Shown: piece by piece, positions 428 through 42,811 of the stretch
Position numbering within the stretch: position 1 is the first letter of the stretch
Layout of the letters: every line of letters starts with the position of its first letter
DNA from: Catajapyx aquilonaris
Lineage: Eukaryota
Direction of reading: 5' to 3'
DNA length: 64,000 nucleotides
NCBI GenBank assembly: GCA_000934665.2
Contig: KZ538408.1
Location: 1 to 64,000 of the forward strand
Notes under the pieces: model-generated
Told to the model about the DNA's origin: nothing
Databases searched by the model: none
The model's input: the letters and a program-made list of their open reading frames with translations, nothing else
Position numbers and translations under genes: made by a program

Positions 428-509
428 CGCAGCCGACAGGATTCGAACCTGCGCTCCCAGAGGGAATCCGATTTCGAGTCGGACGCCTTAACCACTCGGC
501 CACGACTGC
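428..509 (-). tRNA. tRNA-Ser (anticodon CGA)
   Basis: Reverse complement GCAGTCGTGGCCGAGTGGTTAAGGCGTCCGACTCGAAATCGGATTCCCTCTGGGAGCGCAGGTTCGAATCCTGTCGGCTGCG: 82 nt, paired acceptor stem, A box, CGA anticodon, long variable arm, GTTCGAATCC B box; a TTTT run follows a few nt downstream. Confidence 0.95.
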
Positions 510-9944: not shown

Positions 9945-11460
9945 TTCAATTCAATCAATTAAATTTTTTATAGGCTCCCTGCATCAGGCGCAGGGAGGTC
10001 CGTTTTACAGATATGTCAAATACATGATGTACATTAATTAATTATTTATTTATTTATTTATTTTTTCCTCGTCAGTGTTTGTAATTCAATTGTTATGTGG
10101 GGGGGGGGGGAGGGAGAAGAGAGAAGAACAGAAACGGGAAAAAATAGATAAAGAGCAGAGGGAGAAGCAAAAACAGCTGTTCACTTATTCAGTAGAATAA
10201 ATTTATAAGTTTATGTGCCACTTTGCTATGTATTTTAGGTAGAAGAATAGTGATTCTGTTTCTCTATGAGATGGAGCAGCAAGGACCAAATTTATACGAT
10301 TTCTTGGGACCTGAGGGAGGTTCTTTAAGAGGGTATTTCTGCCACCTTCAAACATTTAATGTGATAACAGTCTTCCAATTGATCCAAATTGCACAGAGAA
10401 CAAATTTCCACATTATCTATTTTAATCGAGTAGTTTCCTACTCCTAGGGGGATCCAATTTGCATTCGTCCTGAGACCAGCCAACATCCTAGCTGTGTAAT
10501 ACTTATTTTGTTCTGTGATGTAGTATGCAGGGAAGTATCTGAAGTTATCGTAAAAAATTGCTTTATCTTGATTTGATATATTTAGACCTCTTTAAACAGT
10601 CATAGTCGTTTCGCACTTCATTATCCAACATGGTCTGAGCCAACATAAAGTACTTTTGTGCCCAGAGTTATTCGTCTTCAGCCGCAAAATTGTCTATCAA
10701 TTGACCGTATTCATTTAAGCAACTGTCCAATTATTATTTTACCCAGTTATGCCTCCTAGCGACATGAGATATGACATCACTTTGTCTGGAAGTCTATGCG
10801 GTTTCATATTTAGAAACCGTCTAAAATATCTTAAAGCATGAAGTATCATTTTAATTTTCAATGGAGGCCTTCCAGTTTCTAAGCGTGGCAGGTAGCCTGC
10901 TGTTCTTGGCCCTGTTGCCAATAGCTTTCTAATTGGGTATATTTGGATTTTTTCTATGTCCTTCAGGAGGTTTAAGGGGTCGTCCATAAATTACGTGGAC
11001 AGGAAGGGGGGGAGGGGGTCCTCAGTTGTACACGAGTGTACATCAAGGGGGGGGGAGGGGAGCCACAATAGTATACGTATACAGCTCTTTTTTAAAAAAA
11101 ATTAATTAAAAAATAATAATGATATGATTCATTGCCTGTGACAAGGCCGAAGAGGGGGGTGCCAGGTCGACTGTACATGTAAATAAAGGGGGAGGGGTAC
11201 ATGGATTGTATACAAGTGTCCATATGGGGGGGAGGGGGGGTAGAAAATGGTGGGAAAAGTGTCCACGTAATTTATGGACGGCCCCTAAGCCCCATATCGG
11301 CATTGCATAAGTAGCAGCAGAAGTAATCGTCGAATCGATGAAGTTTAAAGTAGAAGTTATTAGTGGAGGGTTGGCATGCTTTAAAAGAGATTTGGAAGCA
11401 TTAAATTTCGATTTCGCATTTCTCGTTTTTTCTGCCAACTCATTTAGGAATTGACCAGGG
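9945..11460 (-). mobile_element. RTE-X-like LINE 3' remnant
   Basis: ATYAMPIWG, [MITE], IEKIQIYPIRKLLATGPRTAGYLPRLETGRPPLKIKM; CNLCNL..EDCYHIKC zinc knuckle at ~10350-10410; 3' stem-loop and ATTG-type tail at ~9945-10000. Confidence 0.75.
10976..11285. mobile_element. PIF/Harbinger-like MITE inside the LINE
   Basis: TAA|GGGGTCGTCCATAAATTACGTGGACA...TGTCCACGTAATTTATGGACGGCCCC|TAA. Confidence 0.85.
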
Positions 11461-11828: not shown

Positions 11829-15562
<3,734 letters not shown>

Positions 15563-15734
15563 GCGTATATCCTTTTCAAATCTGGCCTGTTAGTGATTGG
15601 ATCCCTGCAACATAAAACGTGTGCAATGATGAGTGGGTGTAATCAGACGACTCCTTTCTCCTGCCCTTGGGTCAGCCCCTGGAGACTCCCCGGGGTCTGA
15701 TTCACCCCAGATTGAGGCAGATTCAGGTACGAAC

Positions 15735-16397
15735 CTATTATTCCAAAAATGGGGTATACAACCGTTGAAAAAAAATACGTTGTCTCCAATTTGGTGACGT
15801 CAGATCCGGCGGATACGATGCGTGCGCATCAGTGACTTTTTTCACGTCCAAAACCGTAACCACGACGCGACGAAAGCCTTGCGCGACGGTAACATATTTT
15901 TTATTGAATTATGTATTTTCATTTATTTTTATTGTATTATCCCGTTCTCAAGCTCTATGCTTGTTTATAGGTACCCACACACACTGCTTGCACACTGTCA
16001 TTTGAACTTCCCTGTTCGAACGTACCAATCGTAATTATTTTAAATGCGATGTGGCAGCATCCTTGGACAGCATCGCTTGTAATTGCATAACTAACGTCCC
16101 ATTTCTTATCAATATATTTTTATACCACTAGTTGCAATCCCCCAATCCTTAATTCTTTTGCAAAAATAAAACTATATTTCAACAACTACTTTTGCAATTT
16201 TCCGACCTGGCAACCCTGGAATTTGAAACCCGAAAAAAAAAGTCAAACTAGTTCTGTACGACGCCTATTCGAACCACTATGTTAATTTTGTTTCGAAGAA
16301 GATAGAGGGTTTTCCGGAGTATAGTATAGTTAAGGGATGTCTGCACAACCACAGCCCATACTTTGAGAGAGCAGGCAAACAACCAGCTACCATCACC
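15735..16397. promoter_or_regulatory. Putative bidirectional promoter region between the RPS2-like and SUMO-like genes
   Basis: Head-to-head ATGs 836 bp apart; CpG-rich stretch ~15790-15890; full CRE palindrome TGACGTCA at 15795-15802; candidate non-coding first-exon donor for the RPS2-like gene at ~15734. Confidence 0.5.
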
Positions 16398-18731
16398 ATG
16401 AGTCGCATGGTGCCATACAAGGAAATAGCAAAGGTGAGTATGCAGCATGTTTTAACTTATTATTATAACCAAAGTTATAATGATTCGAACAAACATATGA
16501 AGAGTCAATAATAGACATCCTAGAATGTACCTCTGGAACCATTGCCTGGAAATTGCCTTATTACTACTAACATGCTGCTAAGAAGCTCCACCCACAATAT
16601 CAGCAGTGGCATGGAATTTTCGTCTCACTGCTAAGCGCAGTTACTGCTAAGGCAGGAAACATGGCTGACGTCAGAGGAACCCTCCATTTACCATTCCCCA
16701 AAAGGTAATTGACACCTCTACCATAACCAATGTGGTCTTGGAATGATAGCTGCTAAGTATCAGCAAGTCTGTTAAGTCACTTCTGACAAAAAATACAAAA
16801 ATTTCACCCATAATGAACTACAGTCCATTATTTCTGCTTTCATTAAGCATCCCCACATGACAGAGGTAACTTATATTATTTAAGGTACCTGTACCCTACT
16901 TATTGTACTGAAAAATGTTTTGTGAGGATATGCTCAGTAATACAGGGTGGTCCAACTTTTTTGTCCGAACAGCTATTGACAAATTCGGCCTAAGCTGCTT
17001 ATGTTGTAGTGCGTTACCTGGCAACCCAGTCCGGTGGGCCAATTCAAACATCAGCCCATGGAGAGCGCTTCCATTGTTGCCACTGTTTACAAATCGAGTG
17101 AGTGACGCGGACGACCCAGCGATGGGTCTCTGCCTGCTTACACATCAGTAGCAAGGGATAAGCAGGGAAAATAATGATGTTACTAAGAGCAAGCCAATGA
17201 CAATGTAAAGAACACTTAGCACTCGTCTCCATGTGCTGATGTTTGAATTGGCCCGCCGGCCGGGGTTTCCAGGTAACGCACTACAACATAAGCAGCTTAG
17301 GCCGAATTTGTCAATAGCTGTTCGGACAAAAAAGTTGGACCACCCTGTATATGAGGTGAGCAGTGACCAAGTGTTAGCATTCAGTCAAATATTGCAGCAA
17401 TTTTTGACCATTTCCATCAAAATTATTCAACATAAATGTTAACATGTACCATTCGACCCCTTGTAAAGTACAAAACTGATTGTTTGGGCCTGTCACAAAC
17501 ATGTTATGCAGTTTCCAATGAAATACAAATGAAAGGTGACAAGTGACTGCTGTTTATCATGGTTAAAACCAAGCTTGTTAAAAAACGACTTATGCAGTCT
17601 TGTATCATTAAAATTCAGTTTTTTTAAATTTAAAAAAACAACCAAACTTTCCTATTACTGACTTACCAGACCTGGGAAAAACTTTAACAGCCCAAAAAAC
17701 AAGCCAGCTTTTCTGGCCTACACAACACTACCTGTGACATACCAAATTTAAGAGAATGTGAATCATTTTACAAATATATTATTGTCATGTGCAGTTGCAA
17801 GTGAAAAATATATGCACAGCTACCAACATTACTCCCAAAATCAGCAGGGAACCCCCTCCCATCAGGTGATGCTAACACTATTTTCTTTCTTCCCTCTCTA
17901 TTCACAGGGCTACATACATGTGGACGCGGACAAAGAGTTCATCGCCATAACCATAGACCGGAAGGATGGTGTGCAAATGAAATATAGGTTGAAAAGAACC
18001 ACAACGTTCAGCAACATGATGTGGAGTTATGCTAATGATGCAGTCAGTATATCCTATTATCTCTCATTTCAAGTTGCAATTTCAGAATCATATTGGTCAA
18101 GACTACTTCCGAACTGAGACCAGAAGTTGGTCATGAAACCTATTAAGGATCCAGTGAATCCGAATCCGAAAACAGCTTGTGGATATCTCGTGCGGTTTAG
18201 GCCCTGATACCTGTCCACAGACGGACATAGACGGCCAGACAATAAGTATAAAAAAGTCTAAAATATGTTCCTGTCTAGTCGTTCTATTGTTCCTCAAAAT
18301 ATGCAAACTTATTTCATTTCACCCTGTATATCCCAAAAAAGCTTGGGCAAATCATGGTCAGTCTCAAACATTTTTATTAGGATGCCTCATGCTAAATCAT
18401 GGTGTGTGGTGGTGATATTTCCTGGTTGACCAATCTATATTTACTAAGATATTCTGCATAATATAATGGAATTACTGTACCTGCATGCATGAGGGCATTG
18501 CAGTAGCATTTAGTGGGCACTATAATTATGTAATTCAAATGGTGATAATTTCTTGATTTGACTTACTTCCAGCGGGTGCCCATCTCCACTGTTCGCTTCA
18601 TATGTGAAGGCCACCATGTTTCTGCCAAAGATACCCCTAATTCCGTGGCCTTCCAGGAAGGTAGCTCGTTTCAGATTTACCTACTAAGATGCTACCATCT
18701 GAGTCCTGCACCATGCCCTCGCGGTGATTAA
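16398..18731 (+). CDS. Divergent SUMO-like (SUMO1-type ubiquitin fold) protein lacking the C-terminal Gly-Gly, ~109 aa
   Basis: Exons 16398-16433 (caccATG; MSRMVPYKEIAK|gtgagt), 17908-18042 (GYIHVDADKEFIAITIDRKDGVQMKYRLKRTTTFSNMMWSYANDA|gtcagt) and 18573-18731 (RVPISTVRFICEGHHVSAKDTPNSVAFQEGSSFQIYLLRCYHLSPAPCPRGD*). Phase-0 introns sit at SUMO-typical positions; AATAAA at 18928. Confidence 0.8.
16941..17349. mobile_element. Tc1/mariner-type foldback MITE in SUMO-like intron 1
   Basis: TA|CAGGGTGGTCCAACTTTTTTGTCCGAAC...GTTCGGACAAAAAAGTTGGACCACCCTG|TA; related short copy at 25794-26004. Confidence 0.85.
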
Positions 18732-19035
18732 TGCCAAAGTTTAGAGGAAGTTCTCTTCGTTCTCTGTTCAACCATGCACCATGGTAACCCGATTTTCACT
18801 CTAGTCTGCTCTAGTCACATGATTGTATTGGTGCTACATCTGGCTATGTTGTTGTTGTTGTTGTGGTTTTTGGAAGTCTCACTTCCTGATAGGTTACGAG
18901 TAACCATTGTACTGTACTACAGAGCTTAATAAAACGTTGACAAGGTGGTTGATAATAATGGTTTGTAACCAAATTTAATAAGTTTTTAAAGATAATTGTA
19001 TTGGTACTCTATTTAATAATTAAATTGGATTAATT

Positions 19036-20408: not shown

Positions 20409-21713
20409 CAGTAGTAATTGTTTAGGGCTAACAAATTACTGCATTAAGCAATTAAGGGAATACCTGCTACTAATCCCGACTGGTATTACCACTGCGGGCG
20501 GGGTGGCCTTCATTCTGTTCAGCAATGTCCACGCACATTGGCACAATTACCAAAAATAGAGAGAACAATTCTGATTGCATAGAGCAGTTTTTTCTATTGG
20601 TACGTACCTCATCATGGCTCAACACCGGAGACTCATTTTTACATAGATTTTACATAGTTTTATATGGTTTTTTGTATATTTATATGTGTGTATTGTGCGT
20701 GTGTTTGTGTATCTGTATGTATTCATGTCATCCTTTTCATTATCATCCTATTCATTATATCCTCTGCGTGGCCTGACCAGTCACCAGAGGATTCATTATA
20801 CTGGTCGTTCGAGATGGCCAGGTGGACTGTTCCTACCTGGTCATCGCTGGTAACCCCATCTTGATGGGAATATGCCGTGAAGGAAATGAATGTATGTATG
20901 TATGTAAATACTGCGTGGAGGAAGTGCTGGCCATTCAAAAAGCTCTTACTAGAGCAGAATGGAATGTGTCAAGATTAGGGGAAGGAGTGGCTCTAGCTGG
21001 AGAGAAGGGAGGAAGGGCGGTCCACTGCAAGGTTGTAACTCTCCGCTGATATACTGAATGCTTGTTTTGGTTAGTGGCATTTATGATTTGAAGATGAGCC
21101 CAGCAAGGTGCATGTTGAGAAAATATCAGGATGTAAGAGGAATGCTTCAGCATGAGTTGACACATTAAAAGATCCTGCTAATCAATCAATCAATCAATTG
21201 ATTTAACCTAATATAGGGAGGGACCCGACTCTTTTCATGATACATCTGTCACCATGTATCCATTTTTTACATTTGCAAGTGAAGGTGGAGAGCAAGGCAT
21301 GATAAATGTACAGTTGATATTACAAAATATTTTTTATGCCATTTGGCCACGTACATCAAATACAGGTAGATCGCCTTCTGTTGTACAATCGTGGGCTCAT
21401 GGAGAATGTGCCAAATATTATCTCTATGTATTATTGGTATAAGGTTTTGTAACTTGAACCTCCCTCCCAGGAATATAGGACATTCACTGAGGATGTGGAC
21501 CCAATCGTTTTCCTTCTTTTGGTTACATAAATTACAATTTTCTTCCGGGTTAATTTGGAGACATAATTTGTTTCCTAGTGGTATCCAGTAGGAATGAAAT
21601 CTAAGACACGACAGCATTCTGCTCAGATGTAAGGGTGCGAAGGCTCTAACGTATTGGGTCGGAAAGTACAGTACCTATGTTGGTCGTAGTATATCAATTT
21701 CATTCTGTTAGAG

Positions 21714-22991: not shown

Positions 22992-23120
22992 GGGCCAGTT
23001 GCACCGGCCTCAGTATAACAAGAATTGCCATAGCAATCATTGTTGAAAAACAATGATTGCCATGGCAATTCTTGTTATACCCGAGGTTCTAAGTTATACT
23101 GAGGCCGGTGCAACTGGCCT
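22992..23120. mobile_element. PIF/Harbinger-like MITE
   Basis: TAA|GGGCCAGTTGCACCGGCCTCAGTATAAC...GTTATACTGAGGCCGGTGCAACTGGCCT|TAA. Confidence 0.8.
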
Positions 23121-23471
23121 TAATTGAGTGCCCATATTTGATAAGTAATTTATCCAGTTGTTTAAACCAGTTGTATCTTATCAGGGCATTCTTTTGGTTT
23201 ATAAGAAATTTCAAGGCCCTGTGGGGCAATCTATGTGGCTCCATGTTACAGACTCTTCTAAGATATTTCAGGGCCAGTATGATGATTTTAACTTTCAATG
23301 GGAGCCGGCCCATCTCCAGACGAAGCAGATAGTTAGGTGATCTCCTACCCATCACAAGTAACCTTTTCAAGGAGGTAGTCTGTGCACGTTCCAGGCTCGC
23401 CAGTAAAATCAAGCAGCAAAATTGGGGCTGCATAAATGGCTGTAGCCAGAAGATCCTGCTAATACTAAAGT

Positions 23472-24186
23472 GTGGGGTGATCGAAAAAGAATGAGCGGAT
23501 TTTAAAACCTTATAACTCAAAAACTTAAGCCATATCTTAATGATTTAAGTTTTAAAATGCTACGAAATGATGAAGTTTTGGTCTGACCTTAGTGTGTTTC
23601 GATATGAGCTTCAATTGTTGCTCAGCATGTAAAAATGATGGTATTCGGTCTTGTGCCCAACTCGCTCAATCATATCTGGAGTTATACCGTTGCGATCCTA
23701 TCCCACAGGTGCTGGATATCTCAGATATTTACACCGCACACACTGTTCTTGATGATTCAAATAAAAAAGTTGCCTCATCCATGAAACAAACCTGCTGTGG
23801 GAAAGTTTCATTTGATCCGTCTCCCAGTGTGCGAAGTCTTGACTGAGAAGTTTCACAATGCCTAGTCCCCCCAGAAGCCCAGATCTTACCCCGATTGACT
23901 TTTTGTGGACATTCATGTATGGTGAAAAGATCCGGGATCTCCATCACCTATGGGATAGGATCATAATGGTAACTCTCAGTCATGCCTGAGCTGGTTAGGC
24001 ATGACACCAATTACCGTATTTACATTATTTTGCCGAGCAACAAATGGAGCTCTTATTGAAACAAACTATGGTAAGACCAAAACTTTAGACACTTCTTAGC
24101 ATTTCAAAACTTAAATCATTTAGATGTGTATAAATTTTCGAGTTATAGGGTTTCAAAATCTGTGCATTCTTTTTCAATCACCCTGT
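23472..24186. mobile_element. Tc1/mariner foldback of two 3' ends
   Basis: Inverted arms; internal PRSPDLTPIDFLW catalytic-region motif at ~23870-23910. Confidence 0.75.
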
Positions 24187-25244: not shown

Positions 25245-25793
25245 GATGTAGGAGTGTTGAGTAGGGTATGCTCTATGCAGGATGCAAATCTGCCATAGGG
25301 AAGCCACAACTTGTACACAAACTCAGCACTCCCTCCCCCACCTCTCCAGCCGATTACACCTGCCAAAAACATCCTTCCCCACAATTACAAGAGGAGAATC
25401 CCATGTAAGGATGTATATGTCAGTTCAGCTACATACTGAACCAGTAGTAGTTATTGATGCAATTGATCCTGACAGGCTTGTAATGGGAATGCTAATGTGT
25501 CCTCTTTAAGTAATAATTGAAGGGGTCGGTGCAATACTGCCCTAACCCTCCCAAACCTGATTTTGAGAAAACTGCAGTTGAAAGTTTGAGAGGCCATATA
25601 CATCCCATATACCGTGTGACTTATTTCATTTGATTTCTCAGTGACCGATGGCAGAAACAGCACAATTTCAATGGATTTTATTAGATACATGTGTGTAGTG
25701 TGTAGAAGTGTGCTTAGCTCAATTTGTGTCATTTGGTGGGTTAGGGCGGTATTGCACCGACCCCTTCAATTATTAGGAACAATAGTTACTACA

Positions 25794-26004
25794 TACAGGG
25801 TCTCAACTTTTTTGTCCGAACAGTTATCGGAAATATTGCACTAAGCTGCTACTTTGTAAGCAGTGTATGCCACTTCAACCTAAGATTCACAGGGAATATT
25901 CCCCATTCATCCGACAAACCGGTTGCAAGTCACTGATTATAAAGTAGCAGCTTATAGTGCAATATTTCCGATAACTGTTCGGACAAAAAAGTTGAGACCC
26001 TGTA
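25794..26004. mobile_element. Short foldback MITE related to 16941-17349
   Basis: TA|CAGGGTCTCAACTTTTTTGTCCGAACAG arms. Confidence 0.85.
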
Positions 26005-27359
26005 TAGTCTATTACATTTTGAAAATCTGGAATGGCCTTGATATTTTATTTGCAGGCACTAAACTAGATCAGGTGTGAACTCCTAGGCACCAGAGGATCA
26101 TAATATTGTGCTATGCAAAGTAGGCCTACTCTCGGGAGAGTAAGGCCTGTTACATGAGAATGAATGTCAATATAAAAATTTTGACTTCAAATTCAAACTC
26201 ATCACATACTAATACATATTAAAAAGTGAAAATGGCTTATTTAACAAAACAATTGTTGACCACAATTATATTAGTCACATTGAGCAATGTGCAGTGAACT
26301 TTCCGCAAAATAAGGTATGGCTGTTACAAAAAAATGGAGGGTGATGGACACTTTCTGACTTCATATTCGGAATCAGAGCGTATAAATGCATTAGAACCAG
26401 CTAAAATTGTTCATGTGCCAAAAACCTTGTTGACTAGTGTAATACATGCACCAGTTACACAATAAAATACACTGTCATAAATGATTTATTCCCATTCTAC
26501 AAGTGTTACAATATGCCCCTAGATGAAACCTAAACAAATATTGCAATGAACTTGCACTCAGTTTTTCATAACTGAATTGTGGCAGTGTTACTGTCTTTGC
26601 AGGGAGAGAATAGTAACATCACAAGAGATGAATATGTGATGTTGATAAGTAGGGTTGCAGGACATAAAGTACCGGTACCCCAAATATATTTTTGATTCAT
26701 GCAAAAAAAAACTGATTATAATGCAACAAGTAGGCCTATGTGAATTAAACCATTTTGTTGCAAATATGTCATGTTTCATTACTTACACAAGTTTACATGA
26801 ATACTACATTGTTCACATTCCATGTAGCAACAGCATGCTGTTCCCACTGTCAGATGTTGACATGACAGCAGCGCAGCTGTAACCTTTCTGATAGCCATTA
26901 CAGATAACAGCTTCCCTGGCATCATGCAGGTGGACAGCCTGCTCTTTGCTCAGGGGTCTGGATCATCGACCTTATCACCGAAGTTCTTTCCTATGGCAAG
27001 CAACATATCAATTGTAGAAGTGGGACCTGGCATAGTTGCGCCTTTTGAGACTTGCATTGTTTTATTAGTTTTATGCAGTGGTGCGCAGGAGTTCCGCTAA
27101 TCTGCTAGTAGCGGAACTGACTTTCCGGTTAGCTTATTGGCGTTTTCGCTAACATTGTAAACCGTTAGCGGACCAATTAGCTTCTGCTAAGTTAAGTTTC
27201 GCTAAATGTAAGTCTGCTAACAGGTGTATCGGGGGCCAAGAGAGCCACCCTCTCAGATTACAACTTTTATAGGCTGATGTTTTTGAAGGCCAACCGCCAT
27301 CACTTCGAAACGATGGAGTCGGAGATGGTCCAGCCAAAGTGAATTACATTTTCCAACTG

Positions 27360-34078: not shown

Positions 34079-37000
34079 CTAGAATTCATCATGAAATATT
34101 ACTGGATCTAGTTCATCTAGGGCATTCTCCAACCACAACATAATGTTCTGGCTACTTTGGCTGTGCACAGTTTCTCCCTGAGGGTCCTGAGAATCAGATG
34201 ATCCGCGATAAAACTTGACTGTTGGATAAGCTCTAACACCCGCTTGGCTACATATCCATTGGTAAGCTTGGCAGTTCAGTTTACCTGCCTTAACTTTCCC
34301 TTCAAATTTCTGTGGAGGAAAACACAACAATGTCTTAAATTGTAAGAATCACTATCAAATAATATTTCTCTCTCTCCTGGGCTTACCTTTGCCACAATTT
34401 CAAATTCAGGTGCAAATGTATGACAATGGCCACACCAAGGAGTATAAAAATCAATGATCCATGGATCTGAACTTGGCAAGACATCATTAAGGAAGCCATC
34501 TGGATCCAATGACATAACAGAAGATGGCAAAAAGTTGAACAGCCATTGTATGAGAGCCAATGAATCCCGCTGGTAGCTGGAGTACATTCTGCAAAAACAT
34601 TTTTTGCATCATGAGTCATTAATACCCCACAAGTTACTCTCTGATGTACCATGCCTGTTCACGTGAAGGTGTACCAATGCGAACAAAGAGTAGGTGACAT
34701 TGGCTAGTAACTGAGAAACTTTCTAAGACCTATGCCAGATAGCCATGTGTGTTGCTTTGGCTTGCCCAATAAACTAAACCCAAGAGCTTGTGACACCTTG
34801 ACATGGAACAAACATTGTGGGATCCATGTAACATCTCAAATCCCATCAATGAAAAAAAACTCACTTATTCACACATCTTATGGAAAACTACCTTACCAAA
34901 ATCCCTGGGTTTACGTGCACCCCCGGTTTGCGAGTCATTTCGGCATCCTTCACCCTTCTGCCGAATGACTCTGCGACCGATTTTTCCATTAGCACCTCAA
35001 ATGGTGATTCGTCAGACCAAATCACCTTCCTCCAGTCAGTGAATGTCCAGTTTAGATGGTCCCACACCCATTGGTAGAGCCGTTTCTTCTAGACTCAGGT
35101 GAGGAGTGGTTTCCTCTTTGACTTGTAGGACCTGTACCCCATATCTTTCAGCCTTTTCATGGTTATTTTCGTTGAAATTGGATGCCTCAGGCTTTCTGCC
35201 ACGATGCTGCAGCCTCCACAAAAGTGCCTGGTCTGTTTTTCCTGACAATCCAGTGCAGCATCCGTTCCTCTCGTGTTGTTGTTGACTTTCATGGCACCAA
35301 ACTTTTCTTCAGCTCAACTGTTCCAGTGGTGTCGTAATGCTTTAGGAACATGCATATTGTAGACTTTGGAACCAACAGTTCCTGGCCTATCTGCCGAAGA
35401 GGTAAACCATCCTGACCGAGGGGTAAGTTACTCTATGGTTTGGTGTACGACGGACTTTGGACTTGCAAAAGTATTATTGTAACATACATAAAACGCATAT
35501 GACATGAGAATGTGACATCCAATAAATGGGTATGAGATATTGTAGCATACAAAAATGCATATGACTTTGTAGCATACAAAAATGCTATGACATGAGAATG
35601 TGACATCCAAAAAAATGGGTATGAGATATTGTAGCATACAAAAATGCATATGACATGAGAATGTGACATCCAATAAATGGGTATGAGATATTGTAGCATA
35701 CAAAAATGCGTATGACATATTGTAGCATACAAAAATGCGTATGACATATTGTAGCATACAAAAATGCGTATGACATATTGTAGCATACAAAAATGCGTAT
35801 GACATATTGTAACATACCAAAATGCGTATGACATGAAAATGTGACATTTGCGGTACACCCTGTATCGCGGGTGCTAGGAAATGTCATTCTCCCACCATGA
35901 AAACATGATGCATACTCTGGAGTAAATCCATCGGTTTTACTGCCTTTCCCCCTGTTGGGTTGGTATGTTGTACCTAACCAAGCTTTGAACCGCTCCGAAC
36001 CCGCTCCTGAACCCGCTCCGGAACCCGCTCCTGAACCGGGTTCAACTCCGGAGCCGTTCGCTCCGAACCCGCTCCGACCTTCGCTCCACTCTCCCCCGGA
36101 ACCAGCTTGAACCCGTACCCCGTTCCGATGCTCACTCCGGACTCCGACTCTACTGCTCCGGAGCGGGTTCGATGTTATCGGGTTCACGGAGCAACCCTGG
36201 TAAAGAGGGTATCTGCAGATGGAATTGCAGGTGCGTCACAGGTCTGATGTGTACGTCTCTGTGCAAATGTGATGCAGAGTGTATCAGGCCTTAAGTGGGT
36301 TTTACACAGTCGTTTTTACTCTGACTTCGACCAGGTTCGAACATCGAACCTACTGTGTAAATGGCATTCCATGTCGGATCCGACGTTGGAGCCAGGGAGG
36401 CCAGCTCAGATCACCTGGGCAGGTCGGAGACGGGAGAGTGGCGGGGCAAGATGTCGGATTGATTGTGTGAATCACTGTTCGACTCATCCCGGCTCTCTGA
36501 TTGGCTAGTGAGGTCTTCTAGTCGAACTCGTTGCCCCCCACACCACCTTCACCTCCACCTTTTATTTAGTAAACAAACTTTGCCCCCCCCCCCCTCCACC
36601 CCCCTCCACAAAAACGTGTCCCCCCACCTTCCAACATGGAACATTGGACATCGGACATCGAACAGCAGACCTATGTCTGAACAGGTGTCTGATGCCTCTG
36701 AGTTGGAGAGTCGGAGTCGGATCGACTGTGTAGAGCCCACTTAAGAACTACAAATATTGTGAAACCACACAGCGTTGTAGATCGAAATATATGTTGCTAC
36801 AGTTGTATAATGATTTAGTTCTGTATTACACATTCAATAACATGGAGGCAAAAATTATCAGCATGCCCTCGTAATTCACCTCTGAGGTACCTTTAACAAG
36901 TAATGGTTTAAACCTCAGCTCTCTCTCTATCAGGTCTAAAACAACTTTACAACTTCACCAGCAATGCCAACTGTGGTCTTACTCACCAACGGTTGAACCC

Positions 37001-40000
37001 GTAAGATACCACTGCAAGGAATTTGTGCATGCCCAAAAGGGGGAAATCATTATTTTGTGAGGTCAAGAACAATCTAGGCCAGGGGGTTCTTAACCTTTTC
37101 GGGCCTACGCACCCCTCTGAAGACAGTTGGTCCTTGTCGCACCCCCTATACCAGGGGTGATTGATTAGGTTCATAGTTAGACGCAGTCCAGAGGTGCACC
37201 TTGCTCGCACCCCCAGGGGACCCACCTCGCACTCCCTGTGGGTGCAGGCACCCCAGGTTAAGAACTGCTGATCTAGGCAGATAATGAAGGACTTCGCTTT
37301 TTAGCTTAAAACAGGTCTGCAGCAAGGTCAGGTGCTTCTAACACTATTCAGTGTTTCCAAACAGGAAAATTGCTAAAACTATAATGGAAGTCTAACACAG
37401 TGGCTGTAAATGATGTAATGACAAGGTAAGTACTTCAATATGGATACTTCAAAGACTGAACACCATTATGCATGAAAACCTATATATCTTGTCATTCCTC
37501 TCCACTCTTCTACACTGATGAAAGATATGACATAGTAGGCTTACTCACGCTACTTGACTAGTGCCTTTCCCACCAGAAGGGTACAGGTGAATGCTTGGAA
37601 AAGACCTAACAGACTGCTCAGAGCACAGTTCTGATTCCGCAACACAATCCACTTGAGCCACATGGACATCTGGCAAACCAGCAACAGCCTGAAAATACAT
37701 AAGTTGATATCACTGTCAACTGGCAACCCTTTTTTCTCTTTTTTCATATAACGCACTTTAGCCAACTTCCTCCACTCAGGAGCCAACTGCTGACATGGAG
37801 TACACCAGGGGGCAAAAAAATCCACCATCCAGATTTCATTCACAGGCTTATTTCCCAGCTCCTTGTAAAATGTCTCAAGATTCAGGCTCACAACTGGAAA
37901 CATTGATATCAATGCTTCAGTATGTCTCATATGGATAAACACTAGTGGGAGGAAATAAGATACCTCCGAGAAAACTGCCACGAGCATCAAGAGAACCCAT
38001 CAAAAGACTTTCCAAATGAGAAATTTCTCAGGTCCGATCCAGCCTCCAGGGAACGAACTCAGGACCTCAGAGTTGGAAGGCTGTGGCAATTATCACTAGG
38101 CCACTCCCTGACTCCATGATTGTGTATATACCAGTATACCTACTGTCTCATGAGTGCATGCCATTCCACAGCTAAGAAGTGGATTCAGATTCCCACAACT
38201 TGTAACAATAAATACAGTAAAACTTCTATAAGTCGAACTTCCCTAATTCGAAGTTCTCTATAAGTCGAATAAAATGATGAGCTTGGTTGGTCACAATGTA
38301 AAATAATAGGAAATAGGAAACTTCCCTAACTCGAATTTCTATAACTTGAAGTTCTCCATAACTCGAAGTGCATGCAGGGCCTTACCATGGCATATTGATG
38401 CATTTTCAATCTCCCTGAGTTGAAGTTCAAGTAGGCGAGTACGGAAAATTTTCTCATTTCCCAGCTGAAGGGTCAAGAGTAGGCCACATGTACTATCGGA
38501 CGCATAAAGAATGTCCGGGGAGATTCTTCGTTCAGCCTTGTGGAGGCAACCCATTGCACCTGGGTAGCTAAGGGAGGAGGGAAAAAACTCGGCAGATAAG
38601 CATGGACGTACACACTAGTGTGTGTGTACACACCTGTGCAATGGTTTGCCTCCGCCAGGCTGAACGAAGAATCTCCCCGGACATTCTTTATGCGTCCCGT
38701 AGTACAGAAAGGCTCATATTCCTGATCTCTGTCTACCAGACGTACCGAAAGAAGTGTTTGACTCGAATGTGACAATTGAATCCTTGAATCTAACAAGGGA
38801 AGGTCACGGGGTGATAATGACAGATCTTGATGAAATTGATCATGCTAATACAGGACAATATGATACCCAAAAATGAAATATTTCATGCGGAACCCCATAT
38901 TTGCAAAAGTTATGACGTCTTAAAGTTCCAAAAATAATACATTTTCATACTCCATGGGATTACATTAGCGACCACATATAATGACATTGAAGTGTGTAAT
39001 CAGTTTCTAGACCGTTTCTCATTCTTTCAGGGAGCATGTGAATCGATATTCCACCCCCCTAAAAAGGCTCAGCCTTATCATGGGGTAACGTAAAAAAAAA
39101 GAAAAAAAGAAAAAAAGAAAGAGGAATGTTGTCTTATTTTGACAATGTCAAAAATCTTTGCCTAAATGCATATGTAACATTATTAACGAATCCAGACTAA
39201 AAAGATTAGTGTTACAACCAACCCCGATCTCCCTTACTGTTTATATCTACAGGGTGGTCGGTAAATGGCGCACAAGCTTCAGAGAGATTCCTTGTGAAAA
39301 ACCAGTATATGGAAGTGAAGGTCATATTGCTCTACGAGGCCTGGTTACGGCTCACGAGGCCTCCAAAGTTTGGGCCAAATCATGACGTCACATCTGCCTG
39401 CGAAATTCAAACACTACCATATCGCTACCGTACGCGGTGTGTTGCTAGGCGATGCCATGTTGACATCCCCCACATGTTTACCAAGCAATGGAACCGCATA
39501 AACTCGCAGGGACGTTGCCAGGTGATGCCTTACCATCGTCCCGTGAGTTTATACGACGGTATGGCAACGTCCCCGAGAGTTTATACGGTTCCATTGTTTG
39601 GTGAACATGTGGGAGATGTCAACATGACAACGCCTAGCAACACACTGTGTATGGTAGCGATACGGTAGTGTTTGAATTTCGCGGGCGGATGTGACGTCAT
39701 GATTTGGCCCAAACTTTGGAGGCCTCGTGAGCCGTAACCAGGCCTCATAGAGCAATATGACCTTCATTTCCATATACTGGCTTTTCACAAGGAATCTCGC
39801 TACCTGAAGCTTGTGCGCCATTTACCGACCACCCTGTATACACGTACCATAATGCACCCAAAAAACAAACGGGCCTATACTGTTGTGTGTTTGGACTCAC
39901 AGTCAGAAGTATTGCAGCAATATACTTATGTTTACATTGTATTGTTATTTTCAACATTTTCCAATAAAATGATTTTCAGAGGTAATTTAGACACCGGCAT

Positions 40001-42811
40001 TAATGTGAATTGGCATAAAATGAATCTGTGTTAAAAGGGGTGTAAAACTGGTACTTCCTGTACTGTGGTACAGTAATATTTCACTGAAGCCTCCCACTCC
40101 AGAGATCTAGAGTTCAATGCCTGTATTAGACAGAGGACATTCTAATGTGACGAAAGATTTTATGGGTTCTCCTCAGGCTCACGGGAATTCTCTCTGAGTT
40201 CTCCCATCCCACATCATCACATTCTATCGGCAATACAACTATTGAATGAAGTTAGTGTTAAAAAATGGTTCCCTAAAAGGTGCTTGTAAGCCTCTCACAA
40301 CAGATCACATTTTCATTTTTAACTGATATCTGCAGGGCACTGGTGGCCATATGAAAAGCATTTCCATGGGATGTTTATAGGCATTACCAAAAGCATTGAA
40401 AAAGGCCTACCTGCTGGTTTCAAAATATCCTCCACAAATTCAGCAATTTCCTGAGCTTCATGGTCACCCTGAAACTTGTGAGGCTTCGACTGATTATAAA
40501 GAATTGTCGTGGGATAGGATCGGATGTTGTACTGGGTGCAGAGATGGGCATGAAGAGTGCAATCCACTGTTCCAAACTGAACTGGTCCTTCAGACATTAG
40601 CTTGCTGGCCTTCCTGAATTCTGGGAGAAGCTTCATGCAAGGAGGGCACCATGGAGCAAAAAAATCAACGAACCAAGGTGACTCAGCTTGTATCACACTA
40701 GGGAAATCTCTTGGTGTCAGAACACGTATGTTCTGAGCAGAGGAACTTTCACGAGCAAAGTTTGCCACATCAGGTGAGCTGCTACGACCATGATGCATCT
40801 CGTAGCCTCCTCCACGTTTAAATAAAGCAAACGAAGGGAACTTGAACACGTGAAGCTCATTGCAAATGTCGCTTTGGCGTGAACAGTCAACCATGCCGAT
40901 TTTCATGTGAGGAAGAAGAGCTGGCAATTTCTTCCATTCGAGGCCCTCTCCATGAGATCTGGACACGAAGTGAATGAGCCAAGATGGCTCAGATGACTGC
41001 TTCAGTTTACTCTTCAGATCCTGAAGACAATAACAACATACAGTATAAAGCTTGGTGAATACTAGAGCATAAAACATCTTAACAAAAGTGACATCATATT
41101 CCTCACCTTAAACAGATCTCTATCAATAAGCAAGGCACCAGGTAAGTATGACAGCACTTCAGTTGCTAACTCTTTGGCATCAGATCCTTTCACCATGTGT
41201 GCACCCTCTCGAGTAACTTGTCCCGCTTTAAAATATGCTGCATCATTTTTCCTTCCCAACCTTTTACACAAATCTTCCTCAATTCTGCAATCCATTACTG
41301 CAACTGTTACGAGACCCTCCTGAAGTGTAGAATAAACAAATCTCATTATTTACCTGAATATACATAAAGTGAATGAAGTAAAATATGGGTCACTATTGGC
41401 TGAATATGGGTGATACAAGCATTAGAATTCTGCAGAGTGAAAAATATAATTTACTAATATGCACAAATAGATACATTATTCCCACTAGAGTAATATTTCT
41501 GTTCATCAGACCATTGCAGTGTAATTCTGTTTCAGATCAGGCATCAATAAGTCACAGTCATCACAACAGTTCTGAAACTGGGACATTACGGTACCCAAAA
41601 TTCAACAAGTATTTGTGGCTGATGCAATTACTCACTACGTAGGCTTTCATTAAGTGCTTCAGATTCCTTCATCACTGATTTATCCACACTACTACACACA
41701 AAAGAATTTGCCACCCGTCCTACATATAGGACTCCAGCATAAAATGGATTAATACTGAACACTTACCAACATGGCAGCTAGTTTGAGCCTATTATCTCCA
41801 GACAAGCAACCATCTCCCTCTACCTCCACACAGAAAAAAATTAACCACGGTGTAGCTTTATAAAATTCACTGTCTGTAGTCAAGTGATCAAAATTCTCTT
41901 CCCATAGTTCTATCACATGGAAAGGCAGTTTCTTCATCACAAACTCTATCAACGCACTCTCACTCCTCTCGCCCTTGTATTTCTCCCTCTGAAATCATTT
42001 CAAAGCAGGTTCTACTTATGTGAGAGTTACATATTCATTCAAAAGAATCATCCTTACCTCAGGATAAAGTATTAGGGACGGATAAGAAGAGATTGCCTGT
42101 CCTCGGCACAGTAACCAGTCTTCTTCGCAATTGACAGCTCCTATTCGGATGACACCCTCTAACTCACTGGCCAGTTTTCGCCAAGCAGGAGCCAGATGGT
42201 GGCAATGGGAGCACATGGGAGAGTAGAAGTTAACAAACCATATGTGCTGAGAGTTGAGTACATTTTGTTCTGAAAAACAATGTTTTAGTCAATCTTGCTT
42301 ACGTCCAATTCACTCACATATACTTTCGCCTTGAAATAGAACACAAAAACCAAGAAAATGCTCACCAAAGTCACTACGGCTAAGAGTAATAATTTCAGGG
42401 TCATCATCATAGATTCCAAAATTCTCATTGTAATAATGCCAAGAATGGTACTCGTGCCCAGGCTTAAACTTGTTACTCAACCCTTCTTCACCATGCAAGT
42501 CGTACTTTTTTCTTGACTCATCATCTTTTAGTACTTCATATGCTTTGTTAATTTTTATAAACTTTTCTTGCGCCTCTGGATCATCCTGTGACAATTTTAA
42601 TAACTCAATAATTGTGAAGTAATCATAAGATGAGCAAGCTTACCTTATTTTTATCCGGATGCAATGCAAGTGCTAGCTTCTTGAATGCCTTTCGTATTTC
42701 CCTATTGTCAGCATTTTTGTGGATGCCCAATAGCTCATAATAATCTTCACTATGCACATGTGCAATGGAAACTAATGAACTTACAATAATCACTAGCAGA
42801 AAAGTGGGCAT
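34079..42811 (-). CDS. DNAJC10: DnaJ homolog subfamily C member 10 (ERdj5), ER disulfide reductase, ~784 aa
   Basis: Coding exons 42811-42644, 42585-42366, 42269-42058, 41988-41767, 41319-41107, 41020-40411, 37893-37757, 37688-37549, 34588-34387 and 34309-34079; GT-AG introns with consistent phases, 2355 nt. Signal peptide, J-domain with HPD, four thioredoxin CXXC motifs (CSHC, CPPC, CTPC, CGHC) and C-terminal HDEF. Confidence 0.96.
34880..35864 (-). mobile_element. Tc1-like transposon remnant in a DNAJC10 intron
   Basis: [47 protein letters not shown] on minus; left TIR TACAGGGTGTACC at 35864. Confidence 0.85.
35478..35848. repeat. Subterminal minisatellite of the Tc1 element (29-bp unit plus a longer composite unit)
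   Basis: TATGACATATTGTAGCATACAAAAATGCG repeated, interleaved with TATGACATGAGAATGTGACATCCAATAAATGGG units. Confidence 0.9.
35985..36199. repeat. GAACCCGCTCC-type short tandem repeats ending in a hAT-like terminus
   Basis: Imperfect ~12-bp repeats; ends ...GAGCAACCCTG. Confidence 0.6.
36291..36744. mobile_element. PIF/Harbinger-like MITE
   Basis: TTAAGTGGGTTTTACACAGTCG...CGACTGTGTAGAGCCCACTTAA. Confidence 0.75.
37080..37270. mobile_element. hAT MITE
   Basis: CAGGGGGTTCTTAACC...GGTTAAGAACTGCTG; exact 8-bp TSD ATCTAGGC. Confidence 0.9.
38491..38704. mobile_element. Palindromic MITE, unclassified
   Basis: TACTATCGGACGCATAAAGAATGTCCGGGGAGATTCTTCGTTCAGCC arms, inverted at ~38657-38704. Confidence 0.75.
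39248..39838. mobile_element. Tc1/mariner-type foldback element
   Basis: TA|CAGGGTGGTCGGTAAATGGCGCAC; ~270-bp near-identical arms. Confidence 0.9.

Follow-up and report, generated by a model that had tools for sequence, protein, structure and literature searches.

A SUMO-like gene in three short exons

The DNA analyzed here, positions 1 to 64,000 of Catajapyx aquilonaris contig KZ538408.1 (called the window, at its full length), carries on its forward strand, between positions 16398 and 18731, a SUMO-like gene that annotation based on open reading frames (ORFs) misses. An earlier note, made from the sequence alone, had claimed a hidden gene split over three short exons at this place, and all three pieces translate as claimed: joined by their coordinates, 16398-16433, 17908-18042, and 18573-18731 (+) give 330 nucleotides (nt) in frame, that is, 109 codons followed by TAA, and the translation of the joined exons contains no internal stop. 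The reading that we favor, with a probability of roughly one half, is that the gene encodes a maintained, nonconjugatable, strongly diverged SUMO paralogue that is intron bearing and would act noncovalently.

Exon 1 (16398-16433, +) comprises the start codon and 11 codons (MSRMVPYKEIAK) and runs up to the donor AAG/GTGAGT (slashes mark exon-intron boundaries), which agrees with the consensus at 9 of 9 positions. Its start context, ATCACCATGA, was rated good, and among the ATG-to-donor first-exon candidates between 15900 and 17907, only exon 1 as modeled has a perfect donor. The assignment of this exon rests on start context and donor, there being no homology support for it; SUMO N-terminal tails are variable. 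Intron 1 (16434-17907, +; 1474 nt, phase 0) closes with a long pyrimidine run and then cag/G. Within it lies a foldback element resembling a miniature inverted-repeat transposable element, with 125-nt arms (16940-17064 and 17226-17350) separated by 161 nt and 96% complementary to each other; the arm recurs in weaker copies at 25793-25850 and 25971-26005. Exon 2 (17908-18042, +) has 45 codons, which specify the N-terminal half of the SUMO-like domain with a KYRLKRTT strand. It is followed by intron 2 (18043-18572, +; 530 nt, phase 0), which has a weak donor, GCA/GTCAGT, and a good acceptor, cttccag/C, with a pyrimidine-rich run upstream. As the earlier note had proposed, this intron may lie where SUMO genes carry one, ahead of the G-V-P/R-F segment. 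Exon 3 (18573-18731, +), with 52 codons and TAA, supplies the rest of the domain, its C-terminal half, with VRFICEG, DTP, and EGSSFQIY; after IY come LLRCYH, then LSPAPCPRGD, and the stop codon. Three of the four splice sites are thus strong and the ATG is intact. An AATAAA at 18928-18933 (+), about 200 nt past the stop, is by motif alone a likely polyadenylation signal.

The alignment to the SUMO core that the earlier note had made by eye is borne out by matches of both exons to solved structures and by a profile score. When exon 2 alone was searched against solved structures, SUMO2/3 accounted for three of the six matches at an E value of ≤10, the best being 4bkg_A (SUMO2; E value, 0.0037). 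For exon 3 alone, 31 of 33 matches carried a SUMO name, with fly SUMO and SUMO1 at the top; the first match was 2k1f_A, CG4494-PA (E value, 0.018), which we take to be the SUMO of Drosophila, and query residues 2 to 40 lay over SUMO1 residues 57 to 95 (3kyc_D). On 4bkg_A, both exons have the identical offset of 15 residues in spliced numbering, so exons 2 and 3 together follow a single SUMO domain colinearly and meet without a gap.

A SUMO profile was built from 36 domains of at least 60 amino acids, cut from nine poly-SUMO proteins that a phmmer search with exon 3 had retrieved; the exon 2 half of the domain had no part in that retrieval. All nine proteins belong to PF11976 (Rad60-SLD) according to Pfam, with E values of 1e-35 to 5e-96. 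The spliced product scored 50.1 bits on this profile, its residues 23 to 93 aligning without a gap to profile positions 4 to 74 of 80. This 71-position alignment spans the junction of exons 2 and 3 and thereby supports it. Scored singly, exon 3 reached 26.3 bits and exon 2 reached 15.1 bits; the maximum was 6.6 bits among 2000 shuffles of the spliced product and 7.0 bits among 859 other ORFs of at least 40 amino acids in the window. In the alignments, KYRLKRTT of exon 2 corresponds to QFKIKRHT of SUMO2, and EGSSFQIY of exon 3 corresponds to EGDTIEVY. A language-model search likewise placed exon 3 nearest to a Rad60-SLD cluster (score, 0.90; 164 shared features). Judged from its sequence, the candidate is a SUMO relative, and the homology is settled well beyond chance.

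Inside intron 2, the sequence ATATCCTAT begins at 18049, six bases past the weak GT donor of exon 2, and is presumably close to the AT-AC (U12-type) 5' splice motif. A TAC/ stands six bases ahead of the AG acceptor of the same intron, giving a possible 3' end at 18566. The resulting AT-AC intron, 18049-18566, would also keep the frame, inserting VSFQ at the junction; this model scores 42.5 bits on the SUMO profile versus 50.1 bits, that is, 7.6 bits lower, and is kept as a side possibility. ATATCCT occurs nine times in the window, counting both strands.

The end of the protein is where the candidate parts from SUMO. The earlier note had read LLRCYH in place of the SUMO GG end, and the profile agrees: its terminal E-Q-x-G-G is unmatched, with LLRCYH in its place. 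The last six profile positions find no counterpart in the product, among them columns 76 to 80 with the glycines at 79 (frequency, 0.96) and 80 (1.00), and on 3kyc_D, exon 3 residues 37 to 40 (LLRC) lie over SUMO1 residues 92 to 95. The length of the tail is compatible with a SUMO end plus propeptide, and the tail has no recognizable feature. Of the other two frames past IY, read by eye, one stops at once and the other encodes a peptide free of GG. It had also been suggested that a possible donor at 18661 (AAG/GTAGCT, 7 of 9 consensus positions) might splice to a GG-encoding exon. No such exon turned up in the window, and the donor sits within EGSSFQIY, which is still SUMO homologous. Between 18.7 and 40 kb there are 93 phase-1 continuations with GG from this donor, 11 of them after a pyrimidine tract, and none is like a SUMO tail; within 21 kb downstream, we found no alternative last exon restoring one. 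Neither another frame nor a downstream exon supplies GG; within the limits of the window, then, the gene lacks the canonical end for conjugation. A product that ends in LLRCYH and ten further residues thus offers SENP no site for maturation and E1 no terminal glycine to adenylate; canonical attachment to targets is predicted to be impossible for it.

Divergence, constraint, and competing explanations

Identity to the 36 SUMO domains is low, at 10 to 20 of 71 positions (14 to 28%). Despite this low identity, there are no stops, there are no insertions or deletions (indels) relative to the profile, and the ATG is intact. At the columns that are hydrophobic or aromatic at a frequency of at least 0.89 in the family, the candidate is hydrophobic in 13 of 13. 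On its surface, retention is greatest in the second strand and the part after it, and R-F-x-x-E-G is also kept (columns 46, 47, 50, and 51). The coding region is interrupted by two introns (1474 and 530 nt), and these rule out a processed (retro-) pseudogene of SUMO, which is an intronless copy.

How far such retention would be expected under drift was gauged by a substitution-only simulation started from the coding sequence of the candidate itself, with 3000 runs per level. After drift to 60% core identity, 197 of 3000 runs kept an open frame and the ATG; the corresponding counts were 114 at 50%, 47 at 40%, and 14 at 30% identity. An open frame together with all 13 core columns hydrophobic was kept in 6 of 3000 runs at 50% identity, in 3 at 40%, and in none at 30%. 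Because frame and hydrophobic core have been kept through heavy divergence, the product is most likely still made as a folded protein.

Several observations weigh against a maintained and functional paralogue. The simulation began from the candidate and not from its ancestor, and the 13 core columns were defined post hoc, when the alignment had already been seen. It also leaves out indels, which makes it conservative. Its outcome opposes a long-dead pseudogene but does not touch a copy whose divergence took place under selection and whose death is recent. Among 27 columns with a consensus frequency of at least 0.6, only 9 are identical in the candidate (17 belong to the same residue group). 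Changes affect ten conserved columns at or near the surface, for example K8T, D11R, K29N, D56A, and D69S, the last of these in the D-G-D turn; several conserved charged residues are lost, and column 70, hydrophobic at a frequency of 0.86 in the family, is serine. The donor of intron 2 agrees with the consensus at only 5 of 9 positions. No orthologue was present in any protein collection searched.

Pfam adds a further reservation. With the exons scanned singly, exon 2 matched Rad60-SLD over profile positions 1 to 32 (E value, 0.018) at 15.3 bits, below the PF11976 gathering score of 23.8 bits, and exon 3 was without any match. As a noise control, we took the 126 ORFs of at least 85 amino acids in the window, 7 of which are exons of real genes; 5 of the 119 others gave below-cutoff matches to unrelated families at an E value of ≤0.02, and the lone match of exon 2 therefore means little by itself.

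An exhaustive phmmer search of 1.84 billion representative proteins with exon 3 returned 14 matches at an E value of ≤0.001 and no close single-domain relative; the 14 are multirepeat (poly-SUMO) proteins or repeat artifacts (P0003 and P0004). With exon 2, a word-indexed search of longer proteins gave no match, and a scan of metagenome contigs with exon 3 gave 598 pattern matches, none of which was confirmed. The one locus from viral contigs, L001, was rejected: its 8-residue match arose by chance, and its frame has stops close by. Rfam and tRNA scans had no match at the SUMO-like locus. This absence has to be read against the window's DNAJC10-type gene, whose 262-amino-acid exon finds its best relatives, at ≤59% identity, in invertebrates, including a brachiopod, decapods, cnidarians, annelids, and molluscs. 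Protein collections thus sample this lineage poorly, and little can be concluded from a missing orthologue. Two of the retrieved proteins, P0006 (248 amino acids) and P0010 (282 amino acids), contain three tandem SUMO-like domains each, all of PF11976; none of the three repeats of P0006 ends in GG, and two of the three of P0010 are without it. Unannotated public data therefore contain SUMO-like repeats that lack GG. A cluster look-up of P0003, P0006, P0010, and P0015 led to one plant hypothetical protein.

The most serious competitor to a maintained paralogue is a nonfunctional relic: a duplicated SUMO gene that lost its GG and is now decaying, or that died recently after diverging under selection, and whose product is not expressed or is of no consequence. 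We regard this as possible, although on the unlikely side. SUMO pseudogenes are usually marked by a missing GG; excerpts from one study describe a Brassica SUMO5 pseudogene without the di-glycine and class four Arabidopsis paralogues as pseudogenes (PMC6680281), and human SUMO5 may be a pseudogene as well, according to a passage in another (PMC10778024). The very low identity to SUMO domains, the weak second donor, the lost charged columns, and the want of a relative among 1.84 billion representative proteins all fit decay. The last of these is uninformative, given that DNAJC10, too, finds nothing above 59% identity. A frame open over 109 codons without indels relative to the profile, together with an intact ATG and three strong splice sites, speaks against a relic, as does a core hydrophobic at 13 of 13 columns, which arises in at most 6 of 3000 runs under unconstrained substitution.

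It is improbable, though less so than the explanations that follow, that the gene model is incomplete and that further exons, reached through donors at 18661 or 18724 or lying upstream, regain a GG end or make a larger protein. Phase-1 GT dinucleotides do occur at both positions, that at 18724 (GCG/GTGATT) agreeing with the consensus at 6 of 9 positions, and exon 1 is not backed by homology. But SUMO homology runs through 18661 to IY, none of the 93 GG continuations resembles a SUMO tail, and the SUMO profile gives the remaining window ORFs of at least 40 amino acids 7.0 bits at most. Between 19 and 34 kb, ORFs of at least 85 amino acids showed no Pfam domain, the AATAAA follows 200 nt past the stop, and the RPS2 gene occupies the upstream side.

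That the protein is an unconventional modifier, for which the Cys/Pro tail (CYHLSPAPCPRGD) and not a glycine would provide attachment or anchoring, is very doubtful. The single point in its favor is that the tail has two cysteines and is not SUMO-like; it matches no motif, its last cysteine lies five residues from the end and so lacks CaaX spacing, and we know of no precedent in the SUMO family for attachment through a Cys tail. That short ORFs and splice-like sites came together by chance, a reading to which the noise-level Pfam E value of 0.018 might have pointed, is refuted at the level of homology by adjacent exons that match the same family in the same register and by 50.1 bits versus controls of ≤7.0.

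Neighboring genes and repeats

The window is animal-like nuclear DNA. An RPS2 gene at 14637-15589 (-), recognizable from an ORF at 14637-14990 with the Ribosomal_S5 N and C domains and beginning with a start codon at 15562-15560, stands head to head with the SUMO-like gene. The two start codons are 836 bp apart, a CpG-rich stretch lies between them at about 15790 to 15895, and the two genes may have a promoter region in common.

Farther along, the DNAJC10 (ERdj5)-type gene occupies 34082-42639 (-), with one DnaJ exon, its domain at 42313-42639, and several thioredoxin-domain exons, their domains between 34082 and 42288. The sole Rfam or ARAGORN match in the window is a tRNA-Ser with the anticodon CGA at 428-509 (-). 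Three ORFs, at 10739-10990, 21270-21674, and 23092-23544 (all -), have in common the peptide stretch RLE(T/M)GR(P/L)PLK(I/V)K...LRY(F/L)RR...HRLP and look to the eye like C-terminal fragments of ORF2 of a retrotransposon without long terminal repeats (non-LTR); Pfam gave no match for the second and third, and the first, at 83 amino acids, falls below the 85-amino-acid floor of the scan. Long AAT/ATT-type microsatellites at about 12007 to 12343 and 12594 to 12874 produce poly-N, poly-I, and poly-Y ORFs in several frames.

Comparison with SUMO systems and proposed role

With canonical SUMO (SUMO1, SUMO2/3, and fly Smt3), the candidate has in common a length of about 100 amino acids, a flexible N-terminal tail, and one domain, for which we predict the beta-grasp fold on the strength of the sequence only. 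It is colinear with these proteins and ungapped over the 71 positions, and they provide the best solved-structure match for both exons. The motifs kept are the strand F/Y-K/R-hydrophobic-K, TT, Y, R-F, E-G, D-T-P, and E-G. It differs from canonical SUMO in being only 14 to 28% identical, in having no Q-x-G-G end, and in the replacement of several conserved charged residues.

The gene would have originated by DNA-level duplication of SUMO in an invertebrate animal lineage. The strand-2 segment in which KYRLKRTT aligns with QFKIKRHT of SUMO2 is presumably the groove that binds SUMO-interacting motifs (SIMs), and through the retained part of it (Y-R-L-K-R-T-T), the product would bind SIMs. Alternatively, the retained R-F-x-x-E-G patch, which we take to hold the acidic residue for binding to the backside of the E2 enzyme Ubc9 (with D68 as the yeast counterpart), would bind the E2 backside. 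In either mode, the product would replace free SUMO or compete with it. A study of Esc2 used a D68R-Smt3 thioester in which D68 is mutated (excerpt of PMC13645794), and we would map the D68 residue to column 50. Since both strand 2 and R-F-x-x-E-G are retained, the likeliest working model is a free look-alike that would bind SIMs or the E2 backside.

Noncovalent use of a SUMO fold has a counterpart in the RENi proteins (Rad60, Esc2, and NIP45), as the earlier note had remarked of the SUMO-like domains (SLDs) of Rad60 and NIP45. The second of these domains, SLD2 of Esc2, Rad60, and NIP45, is described as binding the Ubc9 backside and a SIM while unconjugated, standing in for free SUMO (excerpt of PMC13645794), which is the model proposed for the candidate. 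The likeness stands as an analogy and no further. RENi members are long proteins with two tandem C-terminal SLDs, whereas the candidate is a single domain in 109 amino acids whose nearest solved relatives are SUMO1/2/3. No RENi structure was among its solved-structure matches, and no second SLD was found among the window ORFs of at least 40 amino acids.

GG-less or nonconjugatable SUMO relatives are already established in plants and mammals. According to excerpts of the respective sources, plant SUMO-v has no obvious di-glycine and a long N-terminal extension (PMC7194008), sorghum GSUL1 is conjugation deficient (PMC6680281), maturation of human SUMO4 is blocked by P90 (PMC10778024), and the human splice forms SUMO1-alpha and SUMO2-alpha cannot be conjugated (PMC9911741). 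Like the candidate, SUMO-v, GSUL1, SUMO4, SUMO5, and the alpha isoforms are SUMO derived and not, or only poorly, conjugated. Unlike it, SUMO4 keeps its GG and the SUMO1/2 alpha isoforms lose a core exon; none of these proteins comes from an invertebrate, and they are related to the candidate by family membership. Proteins with tandem SUMO-like repeats (poly-SUMO, P0006 and P0010, and those of the maize DSUL type) also belong to the Rad60-SLD family; they are concatemers of two to six domains, while the candidate has a single domain that is 17 to 25% identical to the repeats. In the literature, we found no account of a GG-less SUMO copy in an invertebrate, in a search not designed to prove absence.

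It is a tentative proposal, then, that an invertebrate animal keeps and expresses a stand-alone, single-domain, never-conjugated SUMO paralogue that would serve as a soluble decoy or cofactor on SIMs or on the Ubc9 backside, tuning the SUMO pathway outside the conjugation cycle, as an animal counterpart of the RENi SLD2 or of plant SUMO-v. Should the gene instead be a relic, it would add to the cases in which SUMO paralogues are born and die, a process that excerpts of PMC6680281 document well in plants. If maintained, it would occur in an animal group whose worm and fly members have, as a rule, one SUMO gene, a single SUMO being described for yeast, worm, and fly in a passage of PMC10778024. 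If its product is made and kept by selection, the gene would be a natural experiment that separates the noncovalent functions of SUMO, on SIMs and on the E2 backside, from conjugation.

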